DNA from: Minisyncoccota bacterium
GTDB lineage: Bacteria > Patescibacteriota > Minisyncoccia > 2-02-FULL-40-12 > GWA2-44-9
NCBI GenBank assembly: GCA_017992005.1
Contig: JAGOPO010000003.1
Coordinates: forward strand, 1-54,289
Length of the DNA stretch: 54,289 bases
Reading direction: 5' to 3'
Within the stretch, counting starts at the first letter, position 1, and every line of letters starts with the position of its first letter. Below, in pieces: positions 6,602 to 44,191 of the stretch. The notes under the pieces are model-generated. The model was not told the origin of the DNA and did no database searches. It saw only the letters and a list, made by a program, of their open reading frames with translations. A program made the position numbers and the translations under genes.

Positions 6602-6946
6602 ATGTCGATTATTCACGAGATCCAACGACAGCATCCTACAGTTCGTCGAGCGCTGTTTGTGATGTCGCTTGTCATCTCGGTGTCTGTGGTTGGGGTTTTT
6701 ACTGCGTCATCAGTGCAGCAGACGATTTATTTTGGCATACACTCTGATCCCGCAGAGCAAGAAGCGTTTCTTGCTGCGCGAGAAGCGGGGAGACCGCAGC
6801 CGCTCGCCGCGATATCAAAGGCTACGGGTTCGTTGATTGCCAGCATTGGCTCACTCATTGGATGGGATACCAATGCCGGCTTTGACAGCAACGAGAAGTC
6901 AAGCAATACTCAAGGCGGCGTACATCTGCTTCCGTTGTCGGAGTAG
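6602..6946 (+). CDS. Hypothetical membrane-anchored protein
   Basis: An AAGGAGG RBS lies directly upstream, and there is one N-terminal TM helix. Confidence 0.6.
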
Positions 6947-6960
6947 TCTTTTTTCATTTT

Positions 6961-9432
6961 ATGGTCAAAAAAGTCACACAACCAATCGTCCCCGCTGTTG
7001 TACAGCAAACTCCCATTCGAGAAATTACGACGGAGATTCAAAAATCATATCTCGAGTATGCGATGTCGGTCATCGTTGCGCGCGCTCTTCCTGATGTTCG
7101 CGACGGATTAAAGCCGGTGCACCGTCGCATTCTGTGGGGCATGTGGGAGTCGGGCAATACTGCGGGTGCAAAACTTAAGAAGTCTGCTAGTACCGTCGGA
7201 GATGTCATGGGACGGTATCACCCGCATGGTGATGCAGCTATTTACGATTCGTTGGTGCGTATGGCGCAGGATTTTTCGTTGCGGTATCCGTTGGTGCAAG
7301 GGCAAGGAAACTTTGGCTCTATCGATGGAGATGGTGCGGCTGCTATGCGTTACACCGAGGCTCGTTTGGCTCGCATTAGCGACGAGATGCTCGGCGATAT
7401 CGAAAAGGACACCGTGGACTTTAGGCCGAACTACGACGGATCACGAAAAGAGCCGTCGGTGCTTCCTGCGAAGATTCCAAACCTTCTCATTAATGGATCA
7501 ATGGGTATTGCTGTTGGTATGGCAACCAACATTCCTCCGCATAATCTCTCGGAGGTACTCGATGGACTCGTTCACTTGATAGAGCATCCCGAGTCGGACG
7601 TGAAAGAGTTGATGAATTTTATCAAAGGACCTGATTTTCCGACCGGAGGCTCCATCTACAACGAGAAAGACATTCTCAACGCGTACGCCACTGGTCGCGG
7701 TCCCGTTATCTCGCGAGGTACCGCAGAGATCACAGAAGGAAAGCGCGGCCAGCAGATTATCATCACTGAAATTCCGTATCAGGTTATCAAGTCTGATCTT
7801 ATTATTAAGATTGCTGATCTCGTCAAAGAAAAGCGTCTTGAGGGAATCCGCGATATTCGTGATGAGTCAGATAGGCAGGGCATGCGCGTCGTGATCGAGC
7901 TCAAGCAAGACGCCTTTCCAAAGAAGGTGCTCAACTCGCTCTATAAGTGGACCGAGCTTCAAAAGACGTTTCACTTCAACATGCTGGCGCTGTCTGATGG
8001 TATTCAGCCGCAGACCATGGGCCTCAAGGTGATACTTGAGAAGTTCATTGAGCATCGACAGATTGTGGTGCGACGACGAAGTGCGTATGAGCTTGCACGG
8101 GCGTTGGAGCGCGCACATATCTTGGAGGGTCTCAAGAAGGCGCTCGACCATATCGATGAGATTATTAAGGTCATCAAGCAGTCGCCTACACGCGAAGAGG
8201 CGTTTGTGAATTTGATGAAGCGATTCAAGTTTTCTGATCGCCAAGCTAATGCGATTTTGGAAATGCGATTGCAGTCACTCGCCGGTCTTGAGCGGAAGAA
8301 GATCGAAGACGAACTCAAGGCAAAGCGCTTGATCATTGCGGAACTTGAAGAACTTCTCAAGTCGGTCAAAAAACTCTCAGGCGTTGTGAAGCAGGAGTTT
8401 CTTGAGATGCGACAGAAGTATGGAGATGAGCGTCGAACGCGAGTTATCAAGAGCGCGCTGCGAGAGATTGGCGACGAAGAGTTGGTGCCAGAAGAAGATG
8501 CACTCTTTATGATTACCCTGGGCGGCTACATCAAGCGTCTTCCACCTGATGAGTTGCGCGCACAGAAGCGGGGTGGAAAGGGAGTCGGCGGTATCGCCAC
8601 TAAGGAGGAGGATATTGTGAGTCATTTCTTCCTTGCGAATACACACGACAATATTCTATTCTTTACCAATTCTGGAAAGGTATTTCAGATACTGGGATAT
8701 GAAGTTCCTGAAGCGAGTCGCCAAAGCAAGGGGCGCGCCATTACGAATTTCTTGCAAGTCACCACTTCGGATTCAATTACCGCAGTGGTTCCGCTTTCGA
8801 AGGCAAAAGAGCAGAAGCAAAAGAGCCAATTCCTGTTTATGGCAACTACGAATGGCATTATTAAGAAGGTTGCCATGGATTCATTCGATAACGTGCGACG
8901 AAATGGCATCCTCGCCATCAACCTCAAGGGCGATGACAAGCTTGGATGGGTGTTGCCAACCTCGGGAACTGATCAGGTTATTATGACAACAGCCACGGGA
9001 TCAGCAATTCGTTTTACTGAAAAGGATGTGCGTCCTATGGGTCGGTCTGCGGCGGGCGTGCTTGGTATGCGCCTCGAGAAAGACGACAAGCTTGTCGGAG
9101 CTGACGTGGTTCCATCGAATGCAGATAAAGGATTGAGCTTGATGGCGGTCATGGCAAATGGTTATGGAAAGCGGACCGGGTTGAAGGAGTATAAGGTGCA
9201 ACACCGAGGAGGCGTAGGGATACTAACCGCAAATATTACATCGAAAACAGGGAAGCTCGTCTCTGCCCATGTTACGAGCGAGGAGAACGAAGAGTTTGTA
9301 GCGGTATCAAAAAAGGGACAAGTCATTCGCACGGCTATCACAGAAGTTCCCATGTTGGGGCGCGCTACTCAAGGTGTGCGTATCATGCGCTTGGACGGAC
9401 AGGATGAGGTTGCATCGGTGGTGCTCTTCTAG
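6961..9432 (+). CDS. gyrA: DNA gyrase subunit A
   Basis: [25 protein letters not shown], the active-site region and C-terminal beta-pinwheel repeats are all present. Confidence 0.97.
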
Positions 9433-11384: not shown

Positions 11385-12542
11385 ATGAAAGGATTACGTT
11401 TACTTTTACTCTTCATAGCGATTACCGGGTTGGCCCTTGGGCCTACGGTGGTTTCTGCTGCTGATTTTCTTCCCATCGTAAAATGCGGAGCAACAGGGCA
11501 GGCGCCATGTACGCCGTGCGATATTTTTGGATCGCTCAAGAATATTATCGATTTTATTCTCAAGGGGGTTACGGGTCCGGTCGCTGCGTTTATGATTGTC
11601 TATTCTGGCGGCATGATGCTTCTGGGTGGGGGAAAGCCCGAACTCTATAGTGAGGGCAAGAAAATGCTCACGAACACACTTATTGGTGTCACGATCATTC
11701 TGCTCGCGTGGGTGGTGACTAATTTTTTGATTCGCGCACTCATGCCGGGAGTATCGACGGGCACGTCGTGGTTTGAGTTTTCGTGTCCTGCGAGCTTATC
11801 TGCTATCGCACCAATCGACACGACGCTACCAAGTCCAGTCCCCAGTACAGCGGCTGGCGGCTCTACTCCTGCTGCGCCCCCGACCACGAAGCCTTCGTAT
11901 GCGGGTATCTCGTGCCCAATTAGTAACAAGATAAATACATGCAGCACAGACTATGCGTGCCAAGGATGTCCAGAGTATAGAAATGCTGGATATTTCACAA
12001 AATATGGTGCCGACGCGAGAATCCTCGAGGCCATCATGGCAGTGGAGTCCTCCTGCGGAGCGCAACTTAAGAGCCCTGCGGGCGCTTATGGCGTCATGCA
12101 GTTATTGCCAGCCGTGGCGAATAAGCACGTGCAACAATGCCAGATTTACAAGTTAGGAGATGATGGGCAGCCAATGCGAAATACAAAAACAGGAAAATTT
12201 GTGTACGAGACCATTACTCCTGCGTGGTTGCTAAATAAAAATAACTTCGAAAAAAGTGTTTGCTTGGCAGCGATGGAGGTGCGCGCGATCAAGGGTATGT
12301 GCAACAACGATATTCGAAATATTGCCGCTGGATATAATGCCGGACCCGGATGGTGCAAGATTAGCAAGGACTGTGCACAAATGCCGAGCTGTGGGGGTGG
12401 TGTGATGCGCGCCTGGGAGTGTCCATGGGATAACGCAACGCACACTGTATGTAACGAAACCCGCAATGGTGGGGGGCTCATTGAAACGAAGCGATACGCA
12501 CCGAAGGTCGCAACGCTAGCAACCTGCGCAAATCCAAAATGA
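11385..12542 (+). CDS. Fusion of a VirB2/TrbC-like pilin module with a lytic transglycosylase (SLT) domain
   Basis: A signal peptide is followed by two hydrophobic helices around a charged loop, then a Pro/Thr linker. The C-terminal part carries AIMAVESSCG...YGVMQLLP (SLT catalytic Glu-Ser and the GLMQ-type motif). Confidence 0.7.
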   Translation: MKGLRLLLLFIAITGLALGPTVVSAADFLPIVKCGATGQAPCTPCDIFGSLKNIIDFILKGVTGPVAAFMIVYSGGMMLLGGGKPELYSEGKKMLTNTLIGVTIILLAWVVTNFLIRALMPGVSTGTSWFEFSCPASLSAIAPIDTTLPSPVPSTAAGGSTPAAPPTTKPSYAGISCPISNKINTCSTDYACQGCPEYRNAGYFTKYGADARILEAIMAVESSCGAQLKSPAGAYGVMQLLPAVANKHVQQCQIYKLGDDGQPMRNTKTGKFVYETITPAWLLNKNNFEKSVCLAAMEVRAIKGMCNNDIRNIAAGYNAGPGWCKISKDCAQMPSCGGGVMRAWECPWDNATHTVCNETRNGGGLIETKRYAPKVATLATCANPK

Positions 12543-13150
12543 AATATTTAATATCAATATTTTTTGCGTCTGCGATGCTTATGCCCTCATTTGCGTACGC
12601 GGAGAGTCTTTCCTATGATGAGGCGTATGGTAATTATTTGTACCAGTTTCACTTGAGTCTCTCAGGCGCAACCCTTACTAGTAATGAGATCTACGATATT
12701 TTGACCGGTGATGCGCCAGCGATTCCTCGAGGCGACTGGACGGTGGTGGTCACCAATAGCCGAGGAGAGAAGCTGTCGACGCAATTCTTTGACGCGACGA
12801 AGCTTTCAGCTCAAGGCGGAGACTTTACCATTCCGTATCAAAATAGCGGAACAGAGGCGATTTTTAAAAACAGTGCTGGCGTTAACGCTCTCGCTGTTGA
12901 TTTAACGGGCAGTAGGGTGTGCGATGATAATGGAGCATGCTACGCAGACGCAGGAGAGAACTCTTATAACTGTCCCGGTGACTGTGGGGCTGTAGCAGCG
13001 CAGCCTGCGCTGCAAATGGCCACCGTTGGTGCTCAGTTTCCGCTGTCGAGCAGGATTGGGGAGGTTGTGATGAAGCTGGCATTCGGGGCAGCGGGTATTC
13101 TCATGATCACAGGTATTGCGCAGTCGCTGGACAGGCGTCGAAGGGCATAG
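12539..13150 (+). CDS. Secreted protein with C-terminal TM anchor
   Basis: ATGA coupling to the upstream gene. Signal peptide MKYLISIFFASAMLMPSFAYA and a C-terminal hydrophobic helix followed by RRRRA. Confidence 0.6.
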   Translation: MKYLISIFFASAMLMPSFAYAESLSYDEAYGNYLYQFHLSLSGATLTSNEIYDILTGDAPAIPRGDWTVVVTNSRGEKLSTQFFDATKLSAQGGDFTIPYQNSGTEAIFKNSAGVNALAVDLTGSRVCDDNGACYADAGENSYNCPGDCGAVAAQPALQMATVGAQFPLSSRIGEVVMKLAFGAAGILMITGIAQSLDRRRRA

Positions 13151-13164
13151 GATAATGACGTGAC

Positions 13165-13437
13165 ATGGCCTCCTACTCTATTGTTAATCCCCTTGGTGTT
13201 GATAATCTAGAAGATATTTTTAAGTTACTCAGTGGGCGCTTGCTTGATGTTGTGATTCCGATTGCTGTGTTGCTGTATGTGTATGCTGGCTTTCTATTGC
13301 TTACCGCAGCAGGGGACACCACAAAGGTGAAAACAGCAAAGGATACTTTTCAGAATACCTCATTAGGGCTACTGGTTATTTTGATTGGAGCTGGTTTCGT
13401 GGACCTTATTCGTAGCATCCTCAATGCGACTACCTAG
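13165..13437 (+). CDS. Small VirB2/TrbC-like pilin paralog 1
   Basis: Helix, charged loop (TAAGDTTKVKTAKDTFQN), then helix. Confidence 0.6.
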   Translation: MASYSIVNPLGVDNLEDIFKLLSGRLLDVVIPIAVLLYVYAGFLLLTAAGDTTKVKTAKDTFQNTSLGLLVILIGAGFVDLIRSILNATT

Positions 13438-13732
13438 TAAGCTATTCTCAGGAGTGACACTTACGGCTGCGGGGAGCAGTGGCTTTACCTACGATAAGCT
13501 CATTGCGATTCTCAATAATCTCGGGGATATGCTTCGCGCTTTTGGGCTGACGCTGGCAACAGCAGTAGTGGTGTATTATGGATTTCAGATGGCGCTTTCA
13601 CGAGGCGATGCTGCAAAGTTTACGAAGGCCAAAGAGCACCTCATGATAGCTGCGCTGGGGGTCGCGATTATATTTGGCATCGATACCATCATCGCAACTG
13701 TTCGATATCTTGCGGACACACTTACAAACTAA
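13424..13732 (+). CDS. Small VirB2/TrbC-like pilin paralog 2
   Basis: VVVYYGFQMALSRGDAAKFTKAKEHLMIAALGVAIIFG. The start is uncertain; the track ORF starts at 13385. Confidence 0.55.
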   Translation: MRLPSKLFSGVTLTAAGSSGFTYDKLIAILNNLGDMLRAFGLTLATAVVVYYGFQMALSRGDAAKFTKAKEHLMIAALGVAIIFGIDTIIATVRYLADTLTN

Positions 13733-13753
13733 TTTTCTGGTATACTTATTGCT

Positions 13754-14101
13754 ATGAAACTCAAGCGCATATTCTCATTGCAAGCTGCAGCGTTTGTCGT
13801 TTTCTTAGCCGCTTCGTCGATAGCATTAGCTGCTGGCGAGGCCTTAACACTAGAGAAGGTAGTTGGTCTTATAACTGATTCCATTAATCTTCTTATTGGA
13901 CTCGCAGTTACGGTAACGATTGGTATTCTTATTTACGGGGGTTTTCAGATGGCGTATTCGAGGGGGGTGCAAAAAGATTTCGATGTGGGTAAAGAGACTA
14001 TTAAAAATGCATCCATCGGTCTATTAGTCATATTGGGCGTTGGAATAATAATCGCTACAATAAGTAGCTTCGCGCAGAATCCATCGAGTATTGTGCGCTA
14101 G
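13754..14101 (+). CDS. Small VirB2/TrbC-like pilin paralog 3
   Basis: Signal peptide ...ALAAGE, then ILIYGGFQMAYSRGVQKDFDVGKETIKNASIGLLVILG. Confidence 0.65.
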   Translation: MKLKRIFSLQAAAFVVFLAASSIALAAGEALTLEKVVGLITDSINLLIGLAVTVTIGILIYGGFQMAYSRGVQKDFDVGKETIKNASIGLLVILGVGIIIATISSFAQNPSSIVR

Positions 14102-14116
14102 AAGGGGGGTGCAACT

Positions 14117-14473
14117 ATGAAAAAAATAAAACAATATATTTCAGTATTGGGAACATCATTGTTAACGACAGTAACCGCGCATGCTGCGCAGTTGGAGCTT
14201 CCTAAGGCGCCTCAAACAAATGCCGCTGCCGGACTTACGGGGCAGGGCGTTGTTGATATTATAACGCAGTTTGTTAACTTGCTTGTCGGTGTTAGCACGG
14301 TAATTGCAGTGGGCGTGTTCGTGTACGGTGCAATTTTATTCACGGTGCTCGACAAGGCAGATGATGGTAAGACGAAGATGAAGAATGCAGCGTGGGGACT
14401 ACTTGCGATACTAGCGATCGGATTAGGCATAAGAACCATCGCAGATTTTGTCGCGAGAGGACTTACCATTTAA
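14117..14473 (+). CDS. Small VirB2/TrbC-like pilin paralog 4
   Basis: GGGGGG RBS, signal peptide ...VTAHAAQ, then VFVYGAILFTVLDKADDGKTKMKNAAWGLLAILA. Confidence 0.65.
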   Translation: MKKIKQYISVLGTSLLTTVTAHAAQLELPKAPQTNAAAGLTGQGVVDIITQFVNLLVGVSTVIAVGVFVYGAILFTVLDKADDGKTKMKNAAWGLLAILAIGLGIRTIADFVARGLTI

Positions 14474-14701: not shown

Positions 14702-15106
14702 CTACTTGAGCTCAATCTTGAGGCGCTTGGTCTTGGCTTTCTCGAGGGTCGGGAGGCGAATCGTGAGGATACCATTTTTCATGCTGGCTTTGGCTGCGTC
14801 AGCGTCGACTTCTTCGGGCAAAATGATAGAGCGAGAAAATGGACCCCAGTAGAGCTCCTGATAGTAGTAGCTATTTTGACGGACCTTGGTCTCTGGCTGG
14901 CGCGCGCCCTTGATGGTGACCATGTCATTGAGAATGGTGATGTCGAGGTCCGGTGCGGTCGCGCCTGCAATGGTGGATTGAATAACAATGTCGCCATCAT
15001 CGCGATAGACGTCGACGGTAAGCGAGCCCTCGGTTTGTTCTTGTGGTTCTTTGCGAGCGGATGCTAGCTGTATGTCGAGCTCCTCGTCGTTGGGTATGTA
15101 GGGCAT
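14702..15106 (-). CDS. Hsp20/alpha-crystallin small heat-shock protein
   Basis: Alpha-crystallin domain ending in ...KASMKNGILTIRLP. Confidence 0.9.
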   Translation of the reverse strand: MPYIPNDEELDIQLASARKEPQEQTEGSLTVDVYRDDGDIVIQSTIAGATAPDLDITILNDMVTIKGARQPETKVRQNSYYYQELYWGPFSRSIILPEEVDADAAKASMKNGILTIRLPTLEKAKTKRLKIELK

Positions 15107-15110
15107 GAGA

Positions 15111-15842
15111 TTAGACTATAGTTGGAGTTACGTTCCCGTCTCGTTCTTTCATTTTATCAAACAATGTCGATACCAGAAAGGCCATAGCAATCAACAGGAC
15201 GGTGGAATAGAAGAGACTGGCGGAATGCTGTGCTTGCGAGATGAAGAGATTGAATACCCAGTGAAAGAGCGTGGAGAGTCCGAGTCCAACAATAAAGAGC
15301 GCCTTGCGATGGTCAAAGTAATACCATGCCATAGCGATGAAGTAGCCTAAGAGAGCCGATGAGAGCGCGTGCAGGAGTGTGGCGCCCGCAAAACGGAGAC
15401 CCCAAATACTCAACGTTGCAGAAAAGCCATCGCCGATGACGCGATTGATGACGAGGATATTCTCCATCGCGGCAAAACCCAATGCGGCGGTTAGCATGTA
15501 GATCATTGCATCAACGGGTTCGTCGAAGTCGGGGGAACGAAGAACGACAAAGAAGACGGCGAGATATTTTACGACCTCCTCAACAAATGCTGCCCAGAGA
15601 TAAAACACTGGGCCATTGGTGGCAGTATCTGCGGCAATCCCAAGGAGGCGCGCAGCAAATGACGCAAACATGAGTTGGAGTGCAATGGCGAGGGGAGATA
15701 AGATGATGCCCAATAGCAACACCTTAGTGATGAGTACTTTTGGCTCGGGATGGGAGTCCTTCTGGAGCCAATACCACAACCAAATCAAGCTAGGCAGAAT
15801 TCCTAGGAGAACGAGTAACATATACGGCCCGAGCGAAAACAT
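15111..15842 (-). CDS. PrsW-family intramembrane protease
   Basis: LPSLIWLWYWLQKD..PEP at the N-terminus, then FVEEVVKYLAV (EExxK), FAAMENI and LHALSSALLGY. The start is set after the valS stop. Confidence 0.7.
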   Translation of the reverse strand: MFSLGPYMLLVLLGILPSLIWLWYWLQKDSHPEPKVLITKVLLLGIILSPLAIALQLMFASFAARLLGIAADTATNGPVFYLWAAFVEEVVKYLAVFFVVLRSPDFDEPVDAMIYMLTAALGFAAMENILVINRVIGDGFSATLSIWGLRFAGATLLHALSSALLGYFIAMAWYYFDHRKALFIVGLGLSTLFHWVFNLFISQAQHSASLFYSTVLLIAMAFLVSTLFDKMKERDGNVTPTIV

Positions 15843-15867
15843 TATCCAAAGTATACCACGAAAGACG

Positions 15868-18042
15868 CTAGAGGGTCTTCTGCGGCCACGACTGCACCAT
15901 AAGCATATCGTTGCGTGCCTCGCCAAAAAGGCGACCCCAGATATCTTCGGTGACAAACGGTGCGAATGGGTGAATGAGTTTTAGTGTGTTCGCGAGACAC
16001 CACACGAGGATGTGCTCGGTTGATGATTTGAGTTGTGCATCAGCAAGTTGTGGTTTTGAGGCCTCTAGGTAGACGTCAGCAAGCTCTTTCCAGGTGAATT
16101 GGTAGACCTGATTTGCGGCTTCATGGAGCACATGTCGGTCGAGATTGCTTGTGACATCTGTTATGGTTGTCTCGAGTGCGCTCAAGATGGCGCGATCTGC
16201 GTCGGTGGCTGCGGAGGGTTGTGTCGTTGCGTATGCCTTGAGCTGCTCGACGGGAACTGAAAGTAATACGAATCGGGTGATGTTCCAGAGTTTATTGGCA
16301 AAATGCTTGTAGGCGCGAACTTTGTCTTCTGAGATTCGGCTATCGGTGCCCGGTGTGTTGCCGACGATGAGGGCCATACGTCCTGCGTCGGCGCCAAAGG
16401 TGCGAGCAATATCGATAGGATCGATGCCATTGCCGAGAGACTTGGACATCTTGCGACCTTGGGCATCGCGCACCGTGCCATGAAGATAGACCGTTTTAAA
16501 CGGTATTTGATTGATGGCATAGCCACTCATCAAGATCATGCGAGCAACCCAAAAGAAAATAATCTCGTAGCCTGTCTCGAGGACATCGGTGGGGTGATAT
16601 AGTTTGAGATCGGGAGTCTCATCGGGCCATCCGAGTGTAGAAAACGTCCAGAGGCCTGAGCTGAACCACGTATCAAGCGTGTCGGAGTCTTGTGTCCATC
16701 CATCGCCGGTTGGCTCTTCACCCACGGCGATTTCTTCGCTGCGATACCACACAGGAATGCGGTGGCCATACCAAATCTGACGAGAGATGCACCAGTCACT
16801 CAGGTTGTCGATCCAGTGGAAGTATGTCTTGCCCCAATGCTCAGGAATGATGCGTATGCGTTCATCTGCGACGGGTTGGCGCATGAGCTCTTTGAGGGTC
16901 TTATCGCGAGAGGGTATATTTTTGTTGACATCAATAAACCACTGCAGCTTTGGGAGTGGTTCAACGATGCCGCCGGTGCGTTCCGCTGTGGCCACATTTT
17001 GCTGGATTGGCTCTGCTTTTTCGAGGAGACCCTCTTGGGTAAGCCATGCGACGACCAGCTCGCGCGCCTCAATGACCTTCTTGTCTTTGAGTGGCCCATC
17101 AACAATGATGCGTGCAAATTCATTGATGACCTGCACAACGGGTAGCTGGTGTCGCTGAGCCATCGCCCAGTCGATCATACTGTGTGCTGGGGTGACGCCA
17201 AGTGCGCCTGTGCCAAAGGTGGGGTCCACTTCTTTGTCGGCAATGATTTTGATGTGAAGTGGAGCGCCACAGAAGACAACATCATATTCCTTTCCGATGA
17301 ACTGTTGGTAGCGCTCATCGTCGGGATGTACAGCGACGCCTGTGTCGCCAAGTTTTGTTTCTGGTCGAGTGGTCGCAATAGCAATGGGGAAGTCTTTTGA
17401 GTACTTAAATGTCCAGAGAGTTGCGGGGCGCTGTTCGTGCACGACTTCATCGTCGGAGATCGTTGTTTGCCCTTTTGGATCCCAGTTCACAATGCGATTG
17501 CCGCGATAAATAAGGCCATCATCGTACATGCGCTTAAACATGGTGCGAACGGCGCGATTTCTTGATTCATCAAGCGTGAATGCTTCTCGAGACCAATCAC
17601 ACGAGGCACCCATTACTTTCATTTGCGAGGTGATGGTGGCATGGCTTTCTGCGGCAAATGCCTCAACGCGACGCAGAAGCTCCTCTCGTCCCAAGTCGTG
17701 ACGGGATTTGCCTTCTTGTTTGTAGATATCCTTTTCCACGCGAGATTGGGTTGCGATAGCTGCATGGTCGGTTCCCGGTAGCCAGAGTGTGCGATGGCCT
17801 TTCATGCGAGCATAGCGAACCATCACGTCCTCAATGGTGAGCATGAGTGCGTGTCCCATATGTAAAATTCCCGTCACATTCGGTGGAGGCATCATCACGG
17901 TAAATGGTGTAGCGTCCGACTTGGTGACACCAGCTTCGATACATGTTTCTGGATTAAAAAATCCACTCTCGATCCAGCGCTGATAGATGCGAGGTTCGGT
18001 CGAGGTGGCGTCGTAATTTTTGGGGAGTTCGAGAATAGACAT
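15868..18042 (-). CDS. valS: Valine--tRNA ligase
   Basis: PPPNVTGILHMGHA (HIGH) and KMSKSLGN (KMSKS). The start MSILELPKNYD lies 1 nt after the tsaD stop. Confidence 0.95.
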   Translation of the reverse strand: MSILELPKNYDATSTEPRIYQRWIESGFFNPETCIEAGVTKSDATPFTVMMPPPNVTGILHMGHALMLTIEDVMVRYARMKGHRTLWLPGTDHAAIATQSRVEKDIYKQEGKSRHDLGREELLRRVEAFAAESHATITSQMKVMGASCDWSREAFTLDESRNRAVRTMFKRMYDDGLIYRGNRIVNWDPKGQTTISDDEVVHEQRPATLWTFKYSKDFPIAIATTRPETKLGDTGVAVHPDDERYQQFIGKEYDVVFCGAPLHIKIIADKEVDPTFGTGALGVTPAHSMIDWAMAQRHQLPVVQVINEFARIIVDGPLKDKKVIEARELVVAWLTQEGLLEKAEPIQQNVATAERTGGIVEPLPKLQWFIDVNKNIPSRDKTLKELMRQPVADERIRIIPEHWGKTYFHWIDNLSDWCISRQIWYGHRIPVWYRSEEIAVGEEPTGDGWTQDSDTLDTWFSSGLWTFSTLGWPDETPDLKLYHPTDVLETGYEIIFFWVARMILMSGYAINQIPFKTVYLHGTVRDAQGRKMSKSLGNGIDPIDIARTFGADAGRMALIVGNTPGTDSRISEDKVRAYKHFANKLWNITRFVLLSVPVEQLKAYATTQPSAATDADRAILSALETTITDVTSNLDRHVLHEAANQVYQFTWKELADVYLEASKPQLADAQLKSSTEHILVWCLANTLKLIHPFAPFVTEDIWGRLFGEARNDMLMVQSWPQKTL

Positions 18043-27890: not shown

Positions 27891-28084
27891 TTCGTCCTCG
27901 AGCTACTGTCGTCACAGTAGCTCTCGTAGTCCTGGGTAGCGGTACACTATTCACTGGATAGTGTACCGGCGCTTCTTCAATCTGTGATTGAGCTCCATCA
28001 CAGATTGGTTCGCTGCTACCCGTTCGATTCCCTGCACATGCTCGCAGAAAACAAAACAGACCCCTATGGGTCCATTTTGTTTTC
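27891..28084 (-). other. 194-bp hairpin-rich insertion between the two tmRNA 3'-end copies
   Basis: Perfect stems at 27900-27923 (10 bp), 27941-27967 (10 bp) and 27978-28007 (11 bp), plus a long hairpin at 28045-28086. An inverted T-loop/acceptor-like fragment, GTTCGATTCCCTGCACATGCTCGCA, lies at 28022-28046. Confidence 0.6.
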
Positions 28085-28086
28085 TG

Positions 28087-28436
28087 TGGAGATGTGGGGA
28101 ATCGAACCCCAGTCCACTACGATGACCGACACGACGTACTACCAATGTATCCGATTCGGTTGTTCGCCTGCGCGTAGGGAACCGGCAAGATAAGCGCAGA
28201 CTATCATGATCTTAGGTTCGGAGAGTCACGACATGAAGGTGACTAACCAGAGCGAGCTAGATGACACCGCAGAATCCCGTAGCAAGCGTCAGGGTGCGAT
28301 GCGCGACGCCCTTAGGCGAACGCGTAATTGGCGGTTGAATAGCCAGTTATATGTTTGACCAGTGTTTAGTGCGGTTACTGGCCGACCGCATATGGCATCG
28401 TGTGGGCATGAAGCAGTGTCGAAACCGATCATCCCC
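28087..28436 (-). ncRNA. ssrA: tmRNA (SsrA), about 350 nt
   Basis: The 5' end is GGGGATGATCGGTTTCGAC and the 3' end is GGGGTTCGATTCCCCACATCTCCA, with a G3:U70 Ala-type acceptor. The candidate tag reading frame GGC UAU UCA ACC GCC AAU UAC GCG UUC GCC UAA (GYSTANYAFA) lies at 28312-28344. CCA is not encoded. Confidence 0.85.
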
Positions 28437-28445
28437 ATAGAACGT

Positions 28446-28474
28446 ATTATACTACAAAAATTGACAAATTGCAA
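28446..28474 (-). promoter_or_regulatory. ssrA promoter TTGCAA-N17-TATAAT
   Basis: The -10 box ends 9 nt before the GGGG 5' end. Confidence 0.7.
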
Positions 28475-28488
28475 CAGTGCTATAAAAT
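28461..28488 (+). promoter_or_regulatory. Divergent promoter TTGACA-N16-TAAAAT for the Cys-rich operon
   Basis: Interleaved with the ssrA promoter on the opposite strand. Confidence 0.6.
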
Positions 28489-28518
28489 CAGATTCGTTCG
28501 AAATTAGGAGGCATGAAT

Positions 28519-28788
28519 ATGTGGGTAGATGGCGGGTTCGTTCCCAAGGGGGAGCTCTGCACGAAGTGCGATGGGCGAGGATCGGAATCTCGTGGCATTA
28601 CTGCGCGTCATGCTGATGGTTCGGTGTGTGACACTCGGGATGTCGTGTGTGTACTGTGTACGCTGTGTGGCGGTACGGGGCGAGCTACGAAGAAAAAAGC
28701 CCCCGTCTATCTGTCGCCAGCACTTCGATGGGTGCTTCAGGCGTCTCGCATTGCGGCTCGTATTCGCAGGAGTCGAATACGAAGATGA
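28519..28788 (+). CDS. Small protein with two DnaJ-type CxxCxGxG zinc-finger motifs
   Basis: CTKCDGRG and CTLCGGTG. An AGGAGG RBS lies 7 nt before the ATG at 28519; the track start at 28513 is too close to the RBS. Confidence 0.55.
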   Translation: MWVDGGFVPKGELCTKCDGRGSESRGITARHADGSVCDTRDVVCVLCTLCGGTGRATKKKAPVYLSPALRWVLQASRIAARIRRSRIRR

Positions 28789-28808
28789 GTACAACAAGGA
28801 GAGAGAGC

Positions 28809-29108
28809 ATGACACGAAAGCGACGTACGCGATTTTCGGTACCACGTCTTCATACGAAGATTGCTCCGGAATTTTGTACAACATTTCTCGAGGCGGAAGG
28901 ACGGAAGATGTGTGCGAGTGAACAGCCGCGGCAACATCCGAAACGTCCCCTGCATGCGCAAGTATGGCTGTCGAAGATTGCCGTAAATGCGTTGAAGGGG
29001 TTCCGTCGCAACCACGGGCGGTATCCGACTCGTGAGGAAGCGCAGAAGATTCTCAAGAACCTGTTTACGCCCTGGTGGCCGGATCTTTCCAAAGGAGCAA
29101 AGAAATGA
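28809..29108 (+). CDS. Small basic hypothetical protein
   Basis: An AAGGAGAG RBS precedes MTRKRRTRF. The track ORF start at 28647 overlaps the upstream gene. Confidence 0.5.
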   Translation: MTRKRRTRFSVPRLHTKIAPEFCTTFLEAEGRKMCASEQPRQHPKRPLHAQVWLSKIAVNALKGFRRNHGRYPTREEAQKILKNLFTPWWPDLSKGAKK

Positions 29109-29401
29109 ATGCAATGAAGGTGCTGTGCACGATTCGGGAGTATTTTTTCGGAAGCAAGCGATTGCCGCAGAGCGTGCTCGATGAGCATGAACGAGTTATG
29201 CGTCGCTCGTGTCGATACTGCGATGATGTGGCAACACGCGTGGTGTATCACACGCATGATTCCTGGGATACACCGGCGGGAACGACGAATCGTGGCGCGG
29301 TGATCTACGTGTGCAATAAGCCAGAATGCATCACGAAGTCCAAGGAGCACCCGTCGTTGAAGTGCGAAGAATACCCGTGGCCGTTTCCGAGAGCCGCGTA
29401 G
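29105..29401 (+). CDS. Small Cys-rich protein
   Basis: ATGA coupling to the upstream gene and an AAAGGAG RBS. Motifs CRYCDD...VCNKPEC. Confidence 0.55.
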   Translation: MNAMKVLCTIREYFFGSKRLPQSVLDEHERVMRRSCRYCDDVATRVVYHTHDSWDTPAGTTNRGAVIYVCNKPECITKSKEHPSLKCEEYPWPFPRAA

Positions 29402-29405
29402 TTAC

Positions 29406-29431
29406 ATCCCGCCACAGAGGCGGGATTTTTC
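29406..29431 (+). terminator. Intrinsic terminator
   Basis: ATCCCGCC-ACAGA-GGCGGGAT followed by TTTT. Confidence 0.85.
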
Positions 29432-29582
29432 TTGGCGTGCATCGATGTGCCGGCGTCGCGCAACTGTCATATCGCTGGCACGACGCGGCGTCTTTTCATG
29501 CTTGAAAAGCGCCTCCGCTCTCGTCCTCACGGACTCCGAGATGGTCGTTCCATCGATATGCCAGTTTTACTTACGAGCGAGC

Positions 29583-29742
29583 CCAGTCGCTATACCCCAG
29601 CGAACCCTAGTAAAGCGGCTCGCGCATACCCTTGGCAATCGTTATGAATTCCGCTAGGACCAGCGTCCTATTTGCTGGGCCGCAGGAATTCATAGAGTGC
29701 ACTACCCCTGTAGCGAGGGGTGAGTCGGGGTATAGCGACTGG
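29583..29742. repeat. 160-bp element bounded by 16-bp perfect inverted repeats (MITE-like or structured RNA)
   Basis: CCAGTCGCTATACCCC ... GGGGTATAGCGACTGG. A nested 10-bp palindrome pair is TATGAATTCC/GGAATTCATA. CGAGCGA occurs next to both ends. Confidence 0.4.
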
Positions 29743-29749
29743 CGAGCGA

Positions 29750-30196
29750 CTATTCTTCGCTCATACCGCGCATGCGAGAGCGGGCGGTATCTTTCTTTTT
29801 GATGCTTTCGCGTTTGTCGTGTTTCTTTTTTCCGCGAGCAACACCGACTTCTAATTTGATGAGTCCTTTTTTCCCGTAGAGGCGAATCGGTACGAGGGTG
29901 ACGCCGTGTGATTTTGTGAGGCCGGCGAGATTATCCAGTTGTGACCTGGTGATGAGGAGCTTGCGATCGATTTGCTCTTTATAGTCATCGGGGACGTTGC
30001 CGGGTTGATAGGGTGATATGGATGCACCGACGAGCCAGAGCGCGCCTTTGATGCTGCGTACATAGGAGCCCTTAATGCTCACCTTGCCAGTCTTGATGCT
30101 TTTGACTTCGAACCCGCGCAATATCATCCCAGCCTCGAGTGTTTCGAGGATTTCATAATCAAACCGTGCGCGTGGATTGGTGGCGAAGTCTGCCAT
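29750..30196 (-). CDS. smpB: SsrA-binding protein SmpB
   Basis: NPRARFDYEILETLEAGMILRGFEVKSIK... Confidence 0.95.
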   Translation of the reverse strand: MADFATNPRARFDYEILETLEAGMILRGFEVKSIKTGKVSIKGSYVRSIKGALWLVGASISPYQPGNVPDDYKEQIDRKLLITRSQLDNLAGLTKSHGVTLVPIRLYGKKGLIKLEVGVARGKKKHDKRESIKKKDTARSRMRGMSEE

Positions 30197-30227
30197 AGCG
30201 ACACTATACGTAAAACCGGCAGTTCAC

Positions 30228-30749
30228 TCAAACGGAGGAGGGTGCGAGTTTGGCGCTGATGATGGTGGCGATGTACCCGACGAGGATTCCTAAGAAGGCG
30301 CCGACAAGAATGTCGAATGGCCAATGAGCGGCTCCAACAACGCGTGCGATGCCCATGATCGTTGCGCCAGCAAACAACCAGCGCCCAAGACGAACATCAG
30401 ATCGGTAGGCAACCATTGCGAGTGCAAAAAAGAAAATTGCGTGGCCTGAAGGGAGTGATTGGAGCTGCTCTCCAGCATCCTGTGAGATGACTGCGTGCGC
30501 ATCGGGAAGAGCAGCGTACGGTCGAGCACGCTCTACAAAAGTGATAATGAGTGTTTTGACACCGAATCGCGCGATGAAAGCGGCGCCTAGTCCAGAAATG
30601 AGCAAGGCGTATTTTCGGGTAGGCCACAGCGAGGCGCCGATAAACAATGCAATGAGAGCGTACTGCAGATACGAGGCGAGCGCCACAATGACGCCGTCGA
30701 AACCGTGTCCGACAAAACTATTGAAGAATCGAAAAAGTGCGAGGTCCAT
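30228..30749 (-). CDS. PAP2-family phosphatase (undecaprenyl-diphosphatase-like)
   Basis: SLPSGHAIFFF and ARVVGAAHWPFD are PAP2 motifs. TAATG coupling to the HtrA gene. Confidence 0.8.
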   Translation of the reverse strand: MDLALFRFFNSFVGHGFDGVIVALASYLQYALIALFIGASLWPTRKYALLISGLGAAFIARFGVKTLIITFVERARPYAALPDAHAVISQDAGEQLQSLPSGHAIFFFALAMVAYRSDVRLGRWLFAGATIMGIARVVGAAHWPFDILVGAFLGILVGYIATIISAKLAPSSV

Positions 30750-31798
30750 TAGGTGCGCTCAGCGAGCGTGATGGAGCACTCGTGCTCTTTGCCCTCGCGG
30801 AGATAGGTGACAGCAATGGCATCGCCCACTTTGTGCTTCTGGAGCATATCGCTCAAATCGGTGCCCGGCGCGATGTCGATGCCATTGAGCTTCGTGATGA
30901 GGTCGTGTTCTTTGAGTCCCGCTTTTGCAGCTGGCGAATCCACAAGCACCGCTGTAGCGTCGGGGCGGTGATCACGAATAACCATGGCGCCATGATCTGC
31001 CGCGAGCGCATAGCGATGTGCGAGCTCGGGAGTGAGCATGATGTACATGAGGCCGAGGTATGGCTTGATGATGCGGCCATGCGCGAGAATATCTTCGAGG
31101 TCACCCTTGGCCCATGAGATAGGGAGGGCGAAGCCGATGTTCTGTGCGCCGAAGATGACGGCAGTGTTGATGCCGACCACCTGACCTTCCAGATTAATAA
31201 GCGGTCCACCAGAGTTGCCTTGGTTGATGGCAACATCAGTCTGAATGACACCACGCAGCTGCTCCATGTGTGCGCCTGGCTCGCCGCCAAGTGATGCGGA
31301 GATACTGCGAGAAATGCCTGAGATGATGCCCTTGGAGACGCTATTGGAGAAGAGGCCGAGCGCATTTCCGATGGCAAGCACGGTTTGGCCTAATTCAATA
31401 GGAAGTCCTGTGGCGAGTGTGGCGTGAGGGAAGTCGGCGCCTTCTATCTTTAATACAGCGATGTCGTTGATGGGGTCGCGACTCAATACTTTGGCGGGAT
31501 GCTCGCTGCCGTCGTTGAGCACGACGGAATAATCAGCTTGTGTATCAAAGACAACGTGCTTGTTGGTGAGGATGATGCCAGTGGGGTGCACGATAAAACC
31601 CGAGCCACCGCCTACTTTTACTTTCTGTCCGGCACCGTCTTCGACGTCGCCAAGCATAAACGGATTGAAGAGCTGCGACGGATTGATGTCGTGCATCCGA
31701 GGCAAATATTTTGATACCACTACGCTCACTACTGCGGGTGCTACTTTTTTGACTGCATCGATGGGGAGTTTGTCGTAAGTATGTGCGTCCATAGCCAT
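30749..31798 (-). CDS. HtrA/DegP-type serine protease with PDZ domain
   Basis: GSGFIV..TNKHV, DIAVLK and GNSGGPL form the catalytic triad context, followed by a C-terminal PDZ domain. The start is set at MAMDAHTY; the longer track ORF (to 32059) would overlap the divergent gene. Confidence 0.8.
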   Translation of the reverse strand: MAMDAHTYDKLPIDAVKKVAPAVVSVVVSKYLPRMHDINPSQLFNPFMLGDVEDGAGQKVKVGGGSGFIVHPTGIILTNKHVVFDTQADYSVVLNDGSEHPAKVLSRDPINDIAVLKIEGADFPHATLATGLPIELGQTVLAIGNALGLFSNSVSKGIISGISRSISASLGGEPGAHMEQLRGVIQTDVAINQGNSGGPLINLEGQVVGINTAVIFGAQNIGFALPISWAKGDLEDILAHGRIIKPYLGLMYIMLTPELAHRYALAADHGAMVIRDHRPDATAVLVDSPAAKAGLKEHDLITKLNGIDIAPGTDLSDMLQKHKVGDAIAVTYLREGKEHECSITLAERT

Positions 31799-31913
31799 CA
31801 GTATGCCGATACCGTCGCGAGACTTCAAGGGTGACGCGAGAGCTTTGACAAGAACGATGAAGAATTGTACCGTAGCGCGCAATGTACGTTTACAACGAAG
31901 GAGGGTTCTCGTC

Positions 31914-32735
31914 ATGTACGAACGCCACATTCGAGAGGCAGTGAAACACGCAGTTCCTGACGTGCTATCGCGTCGGCTGGTGCGACGTGTCGGTGGGGCA
32001 TCAAAGGCGGACACCGCTCGAGCAAGTCGTATTCGCAGTAGTACCACCATCGCTACCATGCAGTATCGTGATGGAATTCTGTGCGTGGCAGATCGCCAAA
32101 CGAGCGGGTGGGGTTACTCCATTATTTCGCAGCGGTCTATCAAGATCACGCCGGTTTCGTCGCATAGTGCGCTCTTGGGTTCGGGATCGGTAACCGATAT
32201 CCAGCTGGCATATCAGACGCTGCAAAACGTGAATAGTGAATTCGAAGAAGACAACAATGACGATGCGCTCTCGCTTGCGGGACAGGCGCATGTGTTGTCT
32301 CAGTGCTTTCGCTATTGGAGCCAGGAGTACGGCGCGAAGTTCTCGGTGGGAGTGATTCTCGCCGGATTCGATAGCATCAACGGTCCGACTATGTTTTCGG
32401 TGGATGATGATGGGTGTGCTATGCGTCGTACCGAGTTTGCAACCGCAGGCTCAGGCGGTGAACGCATCGAGGATCAGTTCGACGCTCGCTGGGAGCCAAA
32501 TCTTCCCTTTGAGAGAGCGCTCGATGTTGCTATGCATGGCATGATTCATTCGGGGATGCGCGACTCTGGCTCATCCTCTCCTATCATCGCGCTGCCTACA
32601 GTCGTGGTGGTTCGCAACGACGGCGTGCACACGATTCGTGAGCGCGTCATCGAGCGAGCTCTCGGGCATGCATTGCTCTCGAAGCGCCACGTACGTCGAA
32701 GTTTTGCGCACGCACTCATCGGAGGGAAGAAGTAA
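31914..32735 (+). CDS. 20S proteasome beta-subunit-like Ntn hydrolase with propeptide
   Basis: An AAGGAGG RBS lies 8 nt upstream. A propeptide of about 45 aa is followed by TTIATMQYRDGILCVADRQTSG (Thr1, Asp17), a Lys at about position 33 and ATAGSGGE. I align it along its length, from memory, with actinobacterial PrcB. Confidence 0.75.
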   Translation: MYERHIREAVKHAVPDVLSRRLVRRVGGASKADTARASRIRSSTTIATMQYRDGILCVADRQTSGWGYSIISQRSIKITPVSSHSALLGSGSVTDIQLAYQTLQNVNSEFEEDNNDDALSLAGQAHVLSQCFRYWSQEYGAKFSVGVILAGFDSINGPTMFSVDDDGCAMRRTEFATAGSGGERIEDQFDARWEPNLPFERALDVAMHGMIHSGMRDSGSSSPIIALPTVVVVRNDGVHTIRERVIERALGHALLSKRHVRRSFAHALIGGKK

Positions 32736-33382
32736 TGTCTACTGAGTTAGCGGTTCCGGCGGTTGTTGCGCTCCATGATTACAAAAAGGCAGACGCTAGT
32801 CGGCGTATGGCAAAAACGTTTGTCGCCTTTGTTCGGGTGGGCCGAGCAAAAAAGAAGGCATCCGGATATATCGTGTTTTCAGCGAATCGTCCGCTGAGGG
32901 CGTTTCGCCACCCTAATTTCGTTGCGTTCTGGGCAGCACCTGAACTCGAAGGTTTGCATGTGGTCAATGCGATTCTCGATAGTGCACGACAGGCAAATCG
33001 AGATACGTATCTTGATGAAAACTTCCACGATTCGATGGTTATCTCGGCGATAGGTGGCTGTGCGCGTGGCGTGATGAACGACAAAAATATTCCGAAGGCG
33101 CTTGCCTTTGGTCTCATTACTGTCGACACGCATGCCAATGTGACTGCCGCGATGGGAAGCGGCGAGACGCTCGCAGAGGAGTCAGTGTCGCGTCGTGCGC
33201 CGAAGATCGTCATCGCAGGGTGTACCGACATACCGACGCGACGCGCGATTAAGGACCTGCTTACGAAGTATCTCGTGAAGGGGTCTGGTAGCGATGTTGC
33301 TCGCAAGAAGCTCGCCCGTGAGATTCGCAAGCTCACTGGCTTGAAGATGACCGGTTCGTTGATAGTGGCGGATGAGTCGTAG
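32735..33382 (+). CDS. Candidate proteasome alpha-like partner subunit (divergent)
   Basis: TAATG overlap with the beta-like gene, and the beta-then-alpha order matches prcBA. Resemblance to PrcA is only weak (VAFWAAPE, IVIAGCTDIP..AIKDLLTKY). Confidence 0.4.
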   Translation: MSTELAVPAVVALHDYKKADASRRMAKTFVAFVRVGRAKKKASGYIVFSANRPLRAFRHPNFVAFWAAPELEGLHVVNAILDSARQANRDTYLDENFHDSMVISAIGGCARGVMNDKNIPKALAFGLITVDTHANVTAAMGSGETLAEESVSRRAPKIVIAGCTDIPTRRAIKDLLTKYLVKGSGSDVARKKLAREIRKLTGLKMTGSLIVADES

Positions 33383-33387
33383 TTCAG

Positions 33388-33430
33388 CGCTTTGATAGTA
33401 TCCCTTCGGGGAGCTGTCAAAGCGTTTTTT
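33388..33430 (+). terminator. Intrinsic terminator of the proteasome-like pair
   Basis: CGCTTTGATAG...CTGTCAAAGCG forms an 11-bp stem with one G:U pair, followed by TTTTTT. Confidence 0.85.
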
Positions 33431-33472
33431 GTTGGGGTTACGCTACGCCACGAAACCTGCTATATTTTCACC

Positions 33473-43908: not shown

Positions 43909-44191
43909 TTGCGGGGGTGGGATTCGAACCCACGACCTTCAGGTTCTTTCTGTTGTCTGCCATTCCTGGCAGTGTCGGACTATCCCATCATCCGTCCCGT
44001 GTGGGCGAGGATGCTCCCATTATAGTCTCTGAACCTTCCATATGATCTATGCAATCATATGGCTTGGCTGCGGATTGCCCTCGGTTGAACCGGTGGGGTT
44101 TCCCGACAGTTTCGGGTGTTTTCGATACGTATCTCTACGTAAAGTCACAATTGCTTATGAGCCTGACGAGCTGCCGCTGCTCCACCCCGCG
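43909..44191 (-). tRNA. Initiator tRNA-Met (CAU) interrupted by a group I intron; exons 44191-44157 and 43945-43909
   Basis: The joined exons read CGCGGGGTGGAGCAGCGGCAGCTCGTCAGGCTCAT|AACCTGAAGGTCGTGGGTTCGAATCCCACCCCCGCAA. The product has the C1xA72 mismatch and is close to E. coli tRNA-fMet as I recall it. Confidence 0.85.
43946..44156 (-). ncRNA. Group I intron (211 nt, no ORF) in the anticodon loop
   Basis: The 5' exon ends in U and the intron ends in G. P7 pairs GACUAU with AUAGUC inside UCAGAGACUAUAAUGGG...GGGAUAGUCC. P9 is CUGCC-AGGAAU-GGCAG. The IGS-like GUGA lies near the 5' end. Several GAAA-closed hairpins are present. Confidence 0.7.

Follow-up and report, generated by a model that had tools for sequence, protein, structure and literature searches.

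Does a bacterium belonging to the candidate phyla radiation (CPR) encode the core of a 20S proteasome, and how would such a core operate outside the gene setting in which bacterial proteasomes are usually found? The question is raised by two overlapping genes in a 54,289-nt stretch of DNA from a Minisyncoccota bacterium (contig JAGOPO010000003.1 of assembly GCA_017992005.1), referred to here as the window. An initial annotation, made from the letters alone, had proposed a clear proteasome beta gene followed by a partner with only faint resemblance to an alpha subunit. Our analysis indicates that the two genes very probably encode the core of a bacterial-type 20S-like proteasome, with the genes in prcB–prcA order. 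Judged by its sequence, gene 1 encodes a true proteasome beta subunit and not HslV. Gene 2, judged by a structural model, encodes an alpha-type subunit that is recognizable by predicted structure only and that appears to be catalytically inactive. We read the system as a 20S core of the prcBA type carried by a CPR lineage; its alpha subunit is cryptic, and no pupylation locus is linked to it.

The gene 1 product matches the proteasome family PF00227 at E = 1.4e-20 (74.2 bits, cut-off 22.4). NCBIfam models rank archaeal beta first (TIGR03634, 70 bits), then bacterial beta (TIGR03690, 55.7 bits) and then the alpha models; both beta scores lie far under the equivalog cut-offs of 224 and 191.9 bits, and the protein is therefore a divergent lineage and an equivalog of neither model. 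Its top sequence matches in the PDB are eukaryotic beta1, beta5 and beta6 subunits. We built a beta family from eight relatives in a protein collection and more from fetched loci (13 aligned sequences, down to 26% identity) and compared it with alpha and beta reference sets of real subunits from a metagenome scan of actinobacterial and archaeal loci, sorted using Mycobacterium tuberculosis PrcA and PrcB and Thermoplasma acidophilum PsmA and PsmB (the PrcA, PrcB and PsmB sequences are identical to PDB chains). These references include canonical actinobacterial-type prcB–prcA pairs with a 4-nt overlap on freshwater metagenome contigs (L030–L033 and L037) and alpha-then-beta pairs on many marine archaeal contigs. 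In HHalign, the profile of the CPR betas scores 100% probability (E = 3e-38) against the beta reference and 99.3% (E = 6e-21) against the alpha reference. In a neighbour-joining tree the CPR betas form one group (95/100) within the beta subunits (100/100) and adjoin actinobacterial PrcB weakly (42/100), a placement that we take as a hint because the branches are long; sequence identity is 20% to M. tuberculosis PrcB and 20% to T. acidophilum PsmB.

To judge from these alignments, all the catalytic residues of a proteasome beta subunit (Thr1, Asp17, Lys33, Gly47, Ser129, Asp166 and Ser169) are present. In the register of M. tuberculosis PrcB (HG/TTIVAL...GDRR), T44 corresponds to Thr1, D60 to Asp17, K77 to Lys33 with a one-residue insertion, G91 to Gly47, G179-S180-G181 to Gly128-Ser129-Gly130 and D217 to Asp166. 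Across the 13 sequences T44, T45, D60, R61, K77, G91, G179-S180-G181-G182 and S221 are invariant and D217 nearly so, and position 220, the equivalent of Ser169, is Ser or Thr. The propeptide of 43 residues is partly conserved, its N-terminal part being kept as MxxDxxxxAVxxxxP. The profile matches and these positions bear out the initial annotation's proteasome beta fold, its propeptide junction ...IRSS/TTIATMQYRDGILCVADRQTSG, and its Thr1, Asp17, Lys at about 33 and later GSG.

The gene 2 product has no Pfam match, no PDB sequence match and a single chance-level NCBIfam match (E = 0.055). PF00227 is matched at E ≤ 1 by none of the 47 aligned members of its family, in keeping with the highly divergent partner first described; PDB searches with the protein or the family, by phmmer and with profiles, came back empty, and HHalign of the family against the CPR beta profile and against single reference sequences was negative. 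A word-indexed search found one relative. Running a profile over 1.84 billion cluster representatives yielded 45 (representatives at 50% identity), and all but three are 204–245 aa long. In the sources checked, the family has no functional name and its members are unnamed or labelled 'hypothetical protein'.

Structure prediction gives this family an identity. With the 47-sequence alignment, AlphaFold2 returned a model with a predicted local distance difference test score (pLDDT) of 93.4 and a predicted template-modelling score (pTM) of 0.89, superseding an earlier model from five sequences (pLDDT 44.5) whose Foldseek matches leaned towards alpha subunits without reaching significance. The predicted topology is a sandwich of the N-terminal nucleophile (Ntn) hydrolase type preceded by an extra helix: H0 (residues 9–24), four strands, H1, H2, four strands, H3, H4 and a final strand. 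Helix H0 is a hallmark of alpha subunits and sits at the alpha-ring surface. Foldseek found 229 PDB matches at E ≤ 1e-3, and the top 50 are all 20S alpha chains at probability 1.00. M. tuberculosis PrcA is best, with a template-modelling (TM) score of 0.63–0.67 (0.66 at E = 1e-6 for the top match) and a root-mean-square deviation of about 4 Å over about 218 columns (the chain identities of the matched M. tuberculosis entries were checked), followed by Archaeoglobus fulgidus alpha (TM 0.60) and the yeast, human and Plasmodium alphas (TM 0.54–0.59). Sequence identity in the top structural matches is 9–13%. The family has no conserved Thr or Ser nucleophile at the start of strand S1, and its nearly invariant residues are M1, K17, F29, F62, D131, G143 and G162. 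The faint alpha resemblance proposed at the outset is in this way given a definite form by the model.

The pairing of the two genes is conserved and selected. An alpha-like gene directly follows the beta gene in every related locus that reaches far enough, among them those of P0056 (E = 9e-5) and P0048, the most weakly matching members of the alpha family whose loci were consulted. The order is that of prcBA operons such as L030, as had been claimed, and the junction is mostly overlapping, by 1–11 nt (TAATG, TGATG or ATGA types). Around the pair the neighbourhood is constant: smpB, in some cases a PAP2 gene, and a divergent htrA on one side, and argS and then a DUF2238 gene on the other, with htrA kept in that position in all related loci that extend to it. 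Flanking housekeeping genes are 52–90% identical across related loci, and the pair diverges faster than its neighbours: compared with L001–L020, HtrA is 68–90% identical, beta 29–80% and alpha 22–61%, and in L007 the values are 79% for HtrA, 61% for arginyl-tRNA synthetase (ArgRS), 33% for beta and 24% for alpha. The ratio of nonsynonymous to synonymous substitution rates (dN/dS) in an unsaturated pair of loci, L009 and L012, is 0.063 for beta, 0.073 for alpha, 0.062 for ArgRS and 0.054 for HtrA; more distant pairs give 0.07–0.09 for beta and 0.07–0.18 for alpha. Both the beta and the alpha-like genes are under purifying selection.

The two genes form a compact operon (Table 1). We place the beta start at the ATG listed there because the homologues all begin at that position and because the ribosome-binding site AAGGAGGG precedes it; a longer reading frame from 31803 is present and would extend into the divergent HtrA gene. 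Most related loci have a GGAGG-like site in the same position 5′ of beta, and most of the 13 loci have one 5′ of the beta/alpha junction. In the window the beta stop codon TAA (32733–32735) and the ATG of the 215-codon alpha-like gene have one base in common (TAATG). The terminator hairpin has a folding energy of −26.5 kcal/mol (z = −5.7; 0 of 200 shuffles as stable); a consensus scanner missed it because the stem has a bulge, and folding of the region found it. The translational coupling, separate ribosome-binding site and terminator, and divergent HtrA gene of the initial annotation are thereby all recovered. The argS gene lies downstream of the operon. Neither protein has any match in PADLOC or PHROGs, and nothing therefore points to an origin in a defence system or a phage.

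Table 1. Features of the proteasome-like operon and its divergent neighbour (window coordinates)
Feature	Position	Strand	Evidence or remark
Shine–Dalgarno sequence AAGGAGGG	31898..31905	+	8 nt 5′ of the beta start codon; read directly
Proteasome beta subunit gene (prcB-like), 273 aa, start ATG	31914..32735	+	PF00227, NCBIfam, HHalign, dN/dS
Beta propeptide, 43 codons, ending ...R-S-S ahead of Thr1	31914..32042	+	Family alignments, PrcB register
Codon of predicted catalytic Thr1 (T44)	32043..32045	+	Invariant in 13 sequences
Internal Shine–Dalgarno sequence GGAGGG for the alpha-like gene, within the beta 3′ end	32721..32726	+	9 nt 5′ of ATG
Cryptic proteasome alpha-like subunit gene (prcA-like), 215 aa	32735..33382	+	AlphaFold2 and Foldseek; position after beta
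Intrinsic terminator, 18-bp interrupted stem then U-tract	33386..33432	+	RNA folding; closes the two-gene operon
HtrA/DegP-type serine protease gene (Trypsin_2 + PDZ)	30749..31789	−	Pfam E = 3e-32; divergent neighbour

Directly upstream of the operon, a transfer-messenger RNA (tmRNA) gene (tag GYSTANYAFA), smpB, a PAP2 phosphatase gene and htrA occupy window positions 28084–31789, the tmRNA gene lying 1.3 kb beyond smpB. The order of smpB and htrA is kept in all related loci reaching that far, and PAP2 is absent from some. This tmRNA–smpB–PAP2–htrA run could be a quality-control cluster or just conserved gene order. We treat HtrA as a conserved neighbour rather than as a demonstrated member of the proteasome system.

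No gene for a regulator of the core was found beside it. Pfam scans of the larger open reading frames (ORFs) in the window revealed no Pup ligase or Dop and no Mpa/ARC or Cdc48-like ATPase, FtsH being the only AAA+ protein; elsewhere the window shares synteny with L001, in which Pfam matches are assigned to the called genes. A C-terminal-motif scan of small ORFs gave no credible Pup-like ORF in the window, and GGQ or RGE endings turned up solely in antisense artefacts within the htrA and PAP2 genes of related loci. Called genes within 5–10 kb of the annotated related loci are housekeeping genes only, with no Pup, PafA/Dop or proteasomal ATPase among them. The reported absence of pup, dop/pafA, Mpa/ARC and Cdc48-like genes thus holds for the window and the annotated flanks. 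The ftsH gene itself lies at 1466–3322, in a window rich in proteostasis genes.

Several observations weigh against a prcBA-type core, or at least against a conventional one. Against the alpha reference profiles, HHalign gives the partner family a probability of only 6.5–7.8%, and there is no significant sequence similarity to alpha subunits; the low-probability alignment is collinear through H1, H2 and the next strands, sets 'GCxD' opposite the PrcA 'GGTTE' and is best with actinobacterial alpha. The N-terminal tails ahead of H0 are variable in length, often rich in Lys or Arg, and carry no YDR gate motif. For the lysine of the activator pocket (K66 in T. acidophilum, K52 in M. tuberculosis) no position could be assigned, as the alignment around strand S3 is of low confidence. 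Canonical active beta subunits have Gly at position −1. The residue preceding Thr1 (codon 32040–32042) is Ser here and S, D, N, G, K or R across the family, and autoprocessing might therefore differ. The description of the beta subunit as canonical-looking is accordingly sound for the catalytic residues, which are intact, and fails for the −1 residue and for the model scores, which fall far under the equivalog cut-offs. The association of the two proteins into one particle is predicted from the genes and a single-chain model, and the searches for partners extend over the 54-kb window and the 5–10-kb flanks only.

That last point bears most directly on the strongest alternative, that the operon supplies the core to a Pup (or UBact)–proteasome pathway that is itself complete, its tagging enzymes and Mpa/ARC-type ATPase being encoded elsewhere in the genome. 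Besides the extent of the inspection, the weak junction of the CPR betas with actinobacterial PrcB in the tree and the structural resemblance of the partner to actinobacterial PrcA speak for it, and Parcubacteria and Yanofskybacteria are reportedly among the candidate groups with homologues of UBact or proteasome-locus genes. Yet Actinobacteria keep these genes in one Pup–proteasome locus (PMC6466877), none of them adjoins the operon in any annotated locus, and the small-ORF scan produced nothing with a Pup-like C terminus besides the antisense artefacts. We consider an unlinked pathway unlikely; it would in any case touch the regulation of the core only and not the identity of the two genes.

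A second alternative concerns gene 2, whose product might be an alpha-fold accessory (an assembly chaperone, an inhibitor or an inactive subunit mixing into the beta ring), in which case the particle would not be a four-ring 20S assembly. The extreme divergence of the partner, its variable tails lacking the gate motif and its rate of evolution, about twice that of beta, are all compatible with such a role. An accessory fits poorly, however, with a fold match to alpha subunits over the full length, H0 included, with a protein of alpha-subunit size, and with a gene order, overlapping junctions and strict co-occurrence like those of prcBA operons (in L030, beta at 6887–7681 and alpha at 7678–8355), and we judge it distinctly improbable.

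Less plausible still is that gene 1 encodes one of the homo-oligomeric proteasome homologues (HslV, Anbu or BPH type), with an unrelated gene downstream of it. PF00227 spans all these homologues, and weak HslV matches (about 1e-3) occur in 2 of the 13 beta family members. The window protein itself has no match to the HslV NCBIfam model at E ≤ 1, and the best NCBIfam matches of all 13 members are the archaeal and bacterial beta models, consistent with the full-probability HHalign match to beta references; no hslU lies near the operon, and the downstream protein has an alpha fold. An HslV identity for gene 1, considered as a candidate, is contradicted by these beta-model matches and by the lack of a nearby hslU. 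The 43-residue propeptide fits a report of propeptides in proteasome beta and HslV and not in Anbu or BPH (PMC8665760). Anbu and BPH are single-gene homo-oligomers that have neither propeptide nor alpha partner, both of which are present here; this separation is made by description and not by profiles. Such an origin of gene 1 is very unlikely.

An origin of the contig by mis-binning or recent transfer from Actinobacteria or archaea, in favour of which only the rarity of proteasomes in bacteria would argue, is hardly credible given a uniform GC content (0.54 at the locus, 0.48–0.56 across the window), a beta subunit just 20% identical to PrcB and PsmB, and the same smpB, htrA and argS order, with its 52–90% identical flanks, in all related loci, including one on a 650-kb contig. 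All seven related GTDB loci with taxon labels are from metagenome-assembled genomes of CPR bacteria, labelled 'Candidatus Saccharibacteria', 'Candidatus Paceibacterota' (an NCBI synonym of the CPR phylum Minisyncoccota) or 'Candidatus Yanofskybacteria'. Because the flanking genes are so similar, we infer one fairly narrow lineage despite these labels, and the distribution suggests that the operon belongs to such a lineage within the CPR. The family is rare, each cluster being found on one to six contigs.

For the prcBA-type core that we favour, a mechanism can be proposed by analogy with known proteasomes. Gene 1 would yield an active N-terminal-threonine protease subunit made with its 43-residue propeptide, which, as in all studied proteasomes, would be removed autocatalytically during assembly to expose Thr1. 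Gene 2 would supply a catalytically dead alpha-type subunit with helix H0, and from the translational coupling balanced amounts of both products are expected. The most likely assembly is the classical ring stack, alpha7–beta7–beta7–alpha7, with the active sites sequestered inside and substrates entering via the alpha ring. Because no Pup, Pup ligase or depupylase, or ring ATPase is linked to the operon, and because the alpha tails are variable and without YDR, the most likely mode would be ATP-independent breakdown of unfolded or disordered proteins and peptides; alternatively, the core may dock a regulator encoded elsewhere. Ring stoichiometry, autoprocessing, gating and substrate class are in this scheme all carried over from better-known particles. 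The position of the operon beside smpB, tmRNA and htrA points to a possible function in protein quality control, although conserved gene order could account for it as well.

A bolder version of this proposal is possible, although we hold it to be doubtful. The operon may represent an independent, long-diverged and CPR-confined 20S lineage that operates with neither pupylation nor a dedicated unfoldase (or with a novel type of regulator), and whose alpha ring has been remodelled and has no canonical gate or docking features. In these minimal cells it would perhaps serve as the chief chambered protease of the cytosol, and perhaps be tied to quality control by the adjacent tmRNA/SmpB and HtrA.

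Other features of the window lie apart from the operon. On the minus strand at 43910–44190 is a tRNA with a CAT anticodon and an initiator-like 5′ end (GCGGGG...), its anticodon loop interrupted by an approximately 205-nt group I intron (Rfam RF00028, 60.7 bits, 43956–44168); ARAGORN did not call this tRNA, and its exons were read by eye. A tRNA-Ile with the anticodon UAU is encoded at 1382–1458, also on the minus strand; in most bacteria AUA is decoded by a lysidine-modified CAU tRNA instead. At 11385–14473, a single gene with both SLT transglycosylase and type IV secretion system pilin domains precedes a 203-aa ORF that has no Pfam match and four small ORFs of 90–118 aa, which together we take to be a type IV secretion or pilus cluster of the kind reported in CPR bacteria. 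At 14702–15956 on the minus strand, an Hsp20 small heat-shock gene adjoins a gene for a PrsW-family intramembrane protease.

A conserved and selected beta–alpha core in the CPR, outside a pupylation locus, is a new data point on the distribution of bacterial proteasomes, and our full-text literature searches retrieved no description of a CPR proteasome. A review describes bacterial 20S proteasomes as restricted to Actinobacteria, horizontally acquired and run by Pup/Mpa machinery (PMC6466877). Fuchs, Alva and Lupas (2021; PMC8665760) report proteasome beta in several other bacterial groups without mention of CPR bacteria. Their 22 new groups of homologues are described as single proteasome-like proteins, for which neither a co-occurring AAA+ interactor nor an informative genomic context was found, and they find propeptides in proteasome beta and HslV and not in Anbu, BPH or other homologues. 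Alpha subunits of systems like this one can, on our evidence, escape every sequence method, and Pfam surveys that look for two subunits would therefore score an orphan beta in these genomes. The operon also offers a small two-gene system for asking what role a 20S core has without its usual regulators. The findings are of interest for proteasome evolution and of modest interest outside that field.

Among known systems, HslV, Anbu, BPH and the 22 groups share with gene 1 the Ntn-hydrolase fold and catalytic triad, and most are likewise without a linked AAA+ partner; the CPR protein differs from the 22 groups in having a propeptide and a dedicated alpha-type partner. Archaeal PsmA/PsmB cores (T. 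acidophilum, 1PMA; A. fulgidus, 6HE7) resemble the CPR pair in having one alpha type and one beta type, and the archaeal likeness extends to the highest NCBIfam score of gene 1, for archaeal beta (70 bits), and to the match of the partner model to A. fulgidus alpha (TM 0.60). Archaeal propeptides are nevertheless short (8 residues in T. acidophilum, as against 43 here), archaeal alphas have a conserved N-terminal gate motif and are easily recognized by sequence, neither of which is true of the CPR partner, and archaeal cores work with PAN or Cdc48 ATPases, none of which is linked here.

Of the known systems, the actinobacterial prcBA core comes closest. M. tuberculosis PrcB and PrcA (Rv2110c/Rv2109c; PDB 3MI0, 3MKA and 5THO) are encoded in the same beta-then-alpha order with overlapping stop and start codons; like actinobacterial PrcB, the CPR beta has a long propeptide, a TTI... 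N terminus in matching register and an extension at the C terminus (its BLASTP alignment reaches the end of PrcB), and PrcA chains are the best structural matches of the partner, whose weak HHalign signal is also best with actinobacterial alpha. There are also differences: the CPR beta is only 20% identical to PrcB and variable at the −1 position, where PrcB has Gly; the partner is without significant sequence similarity to PrcA; htrA and argS are the neighbours of the operon, with no mpa/arc, dop, pup or pafA beside it; and the host belongs to the CPR, its genome measuring about 0.65 Mb or more. What is new here is the CPR host, the unrecognizable alpha sequence, the non-Gly −1 residue and the setting outside any Pup–proteasome locus, whereas the prcBA core itself is known.

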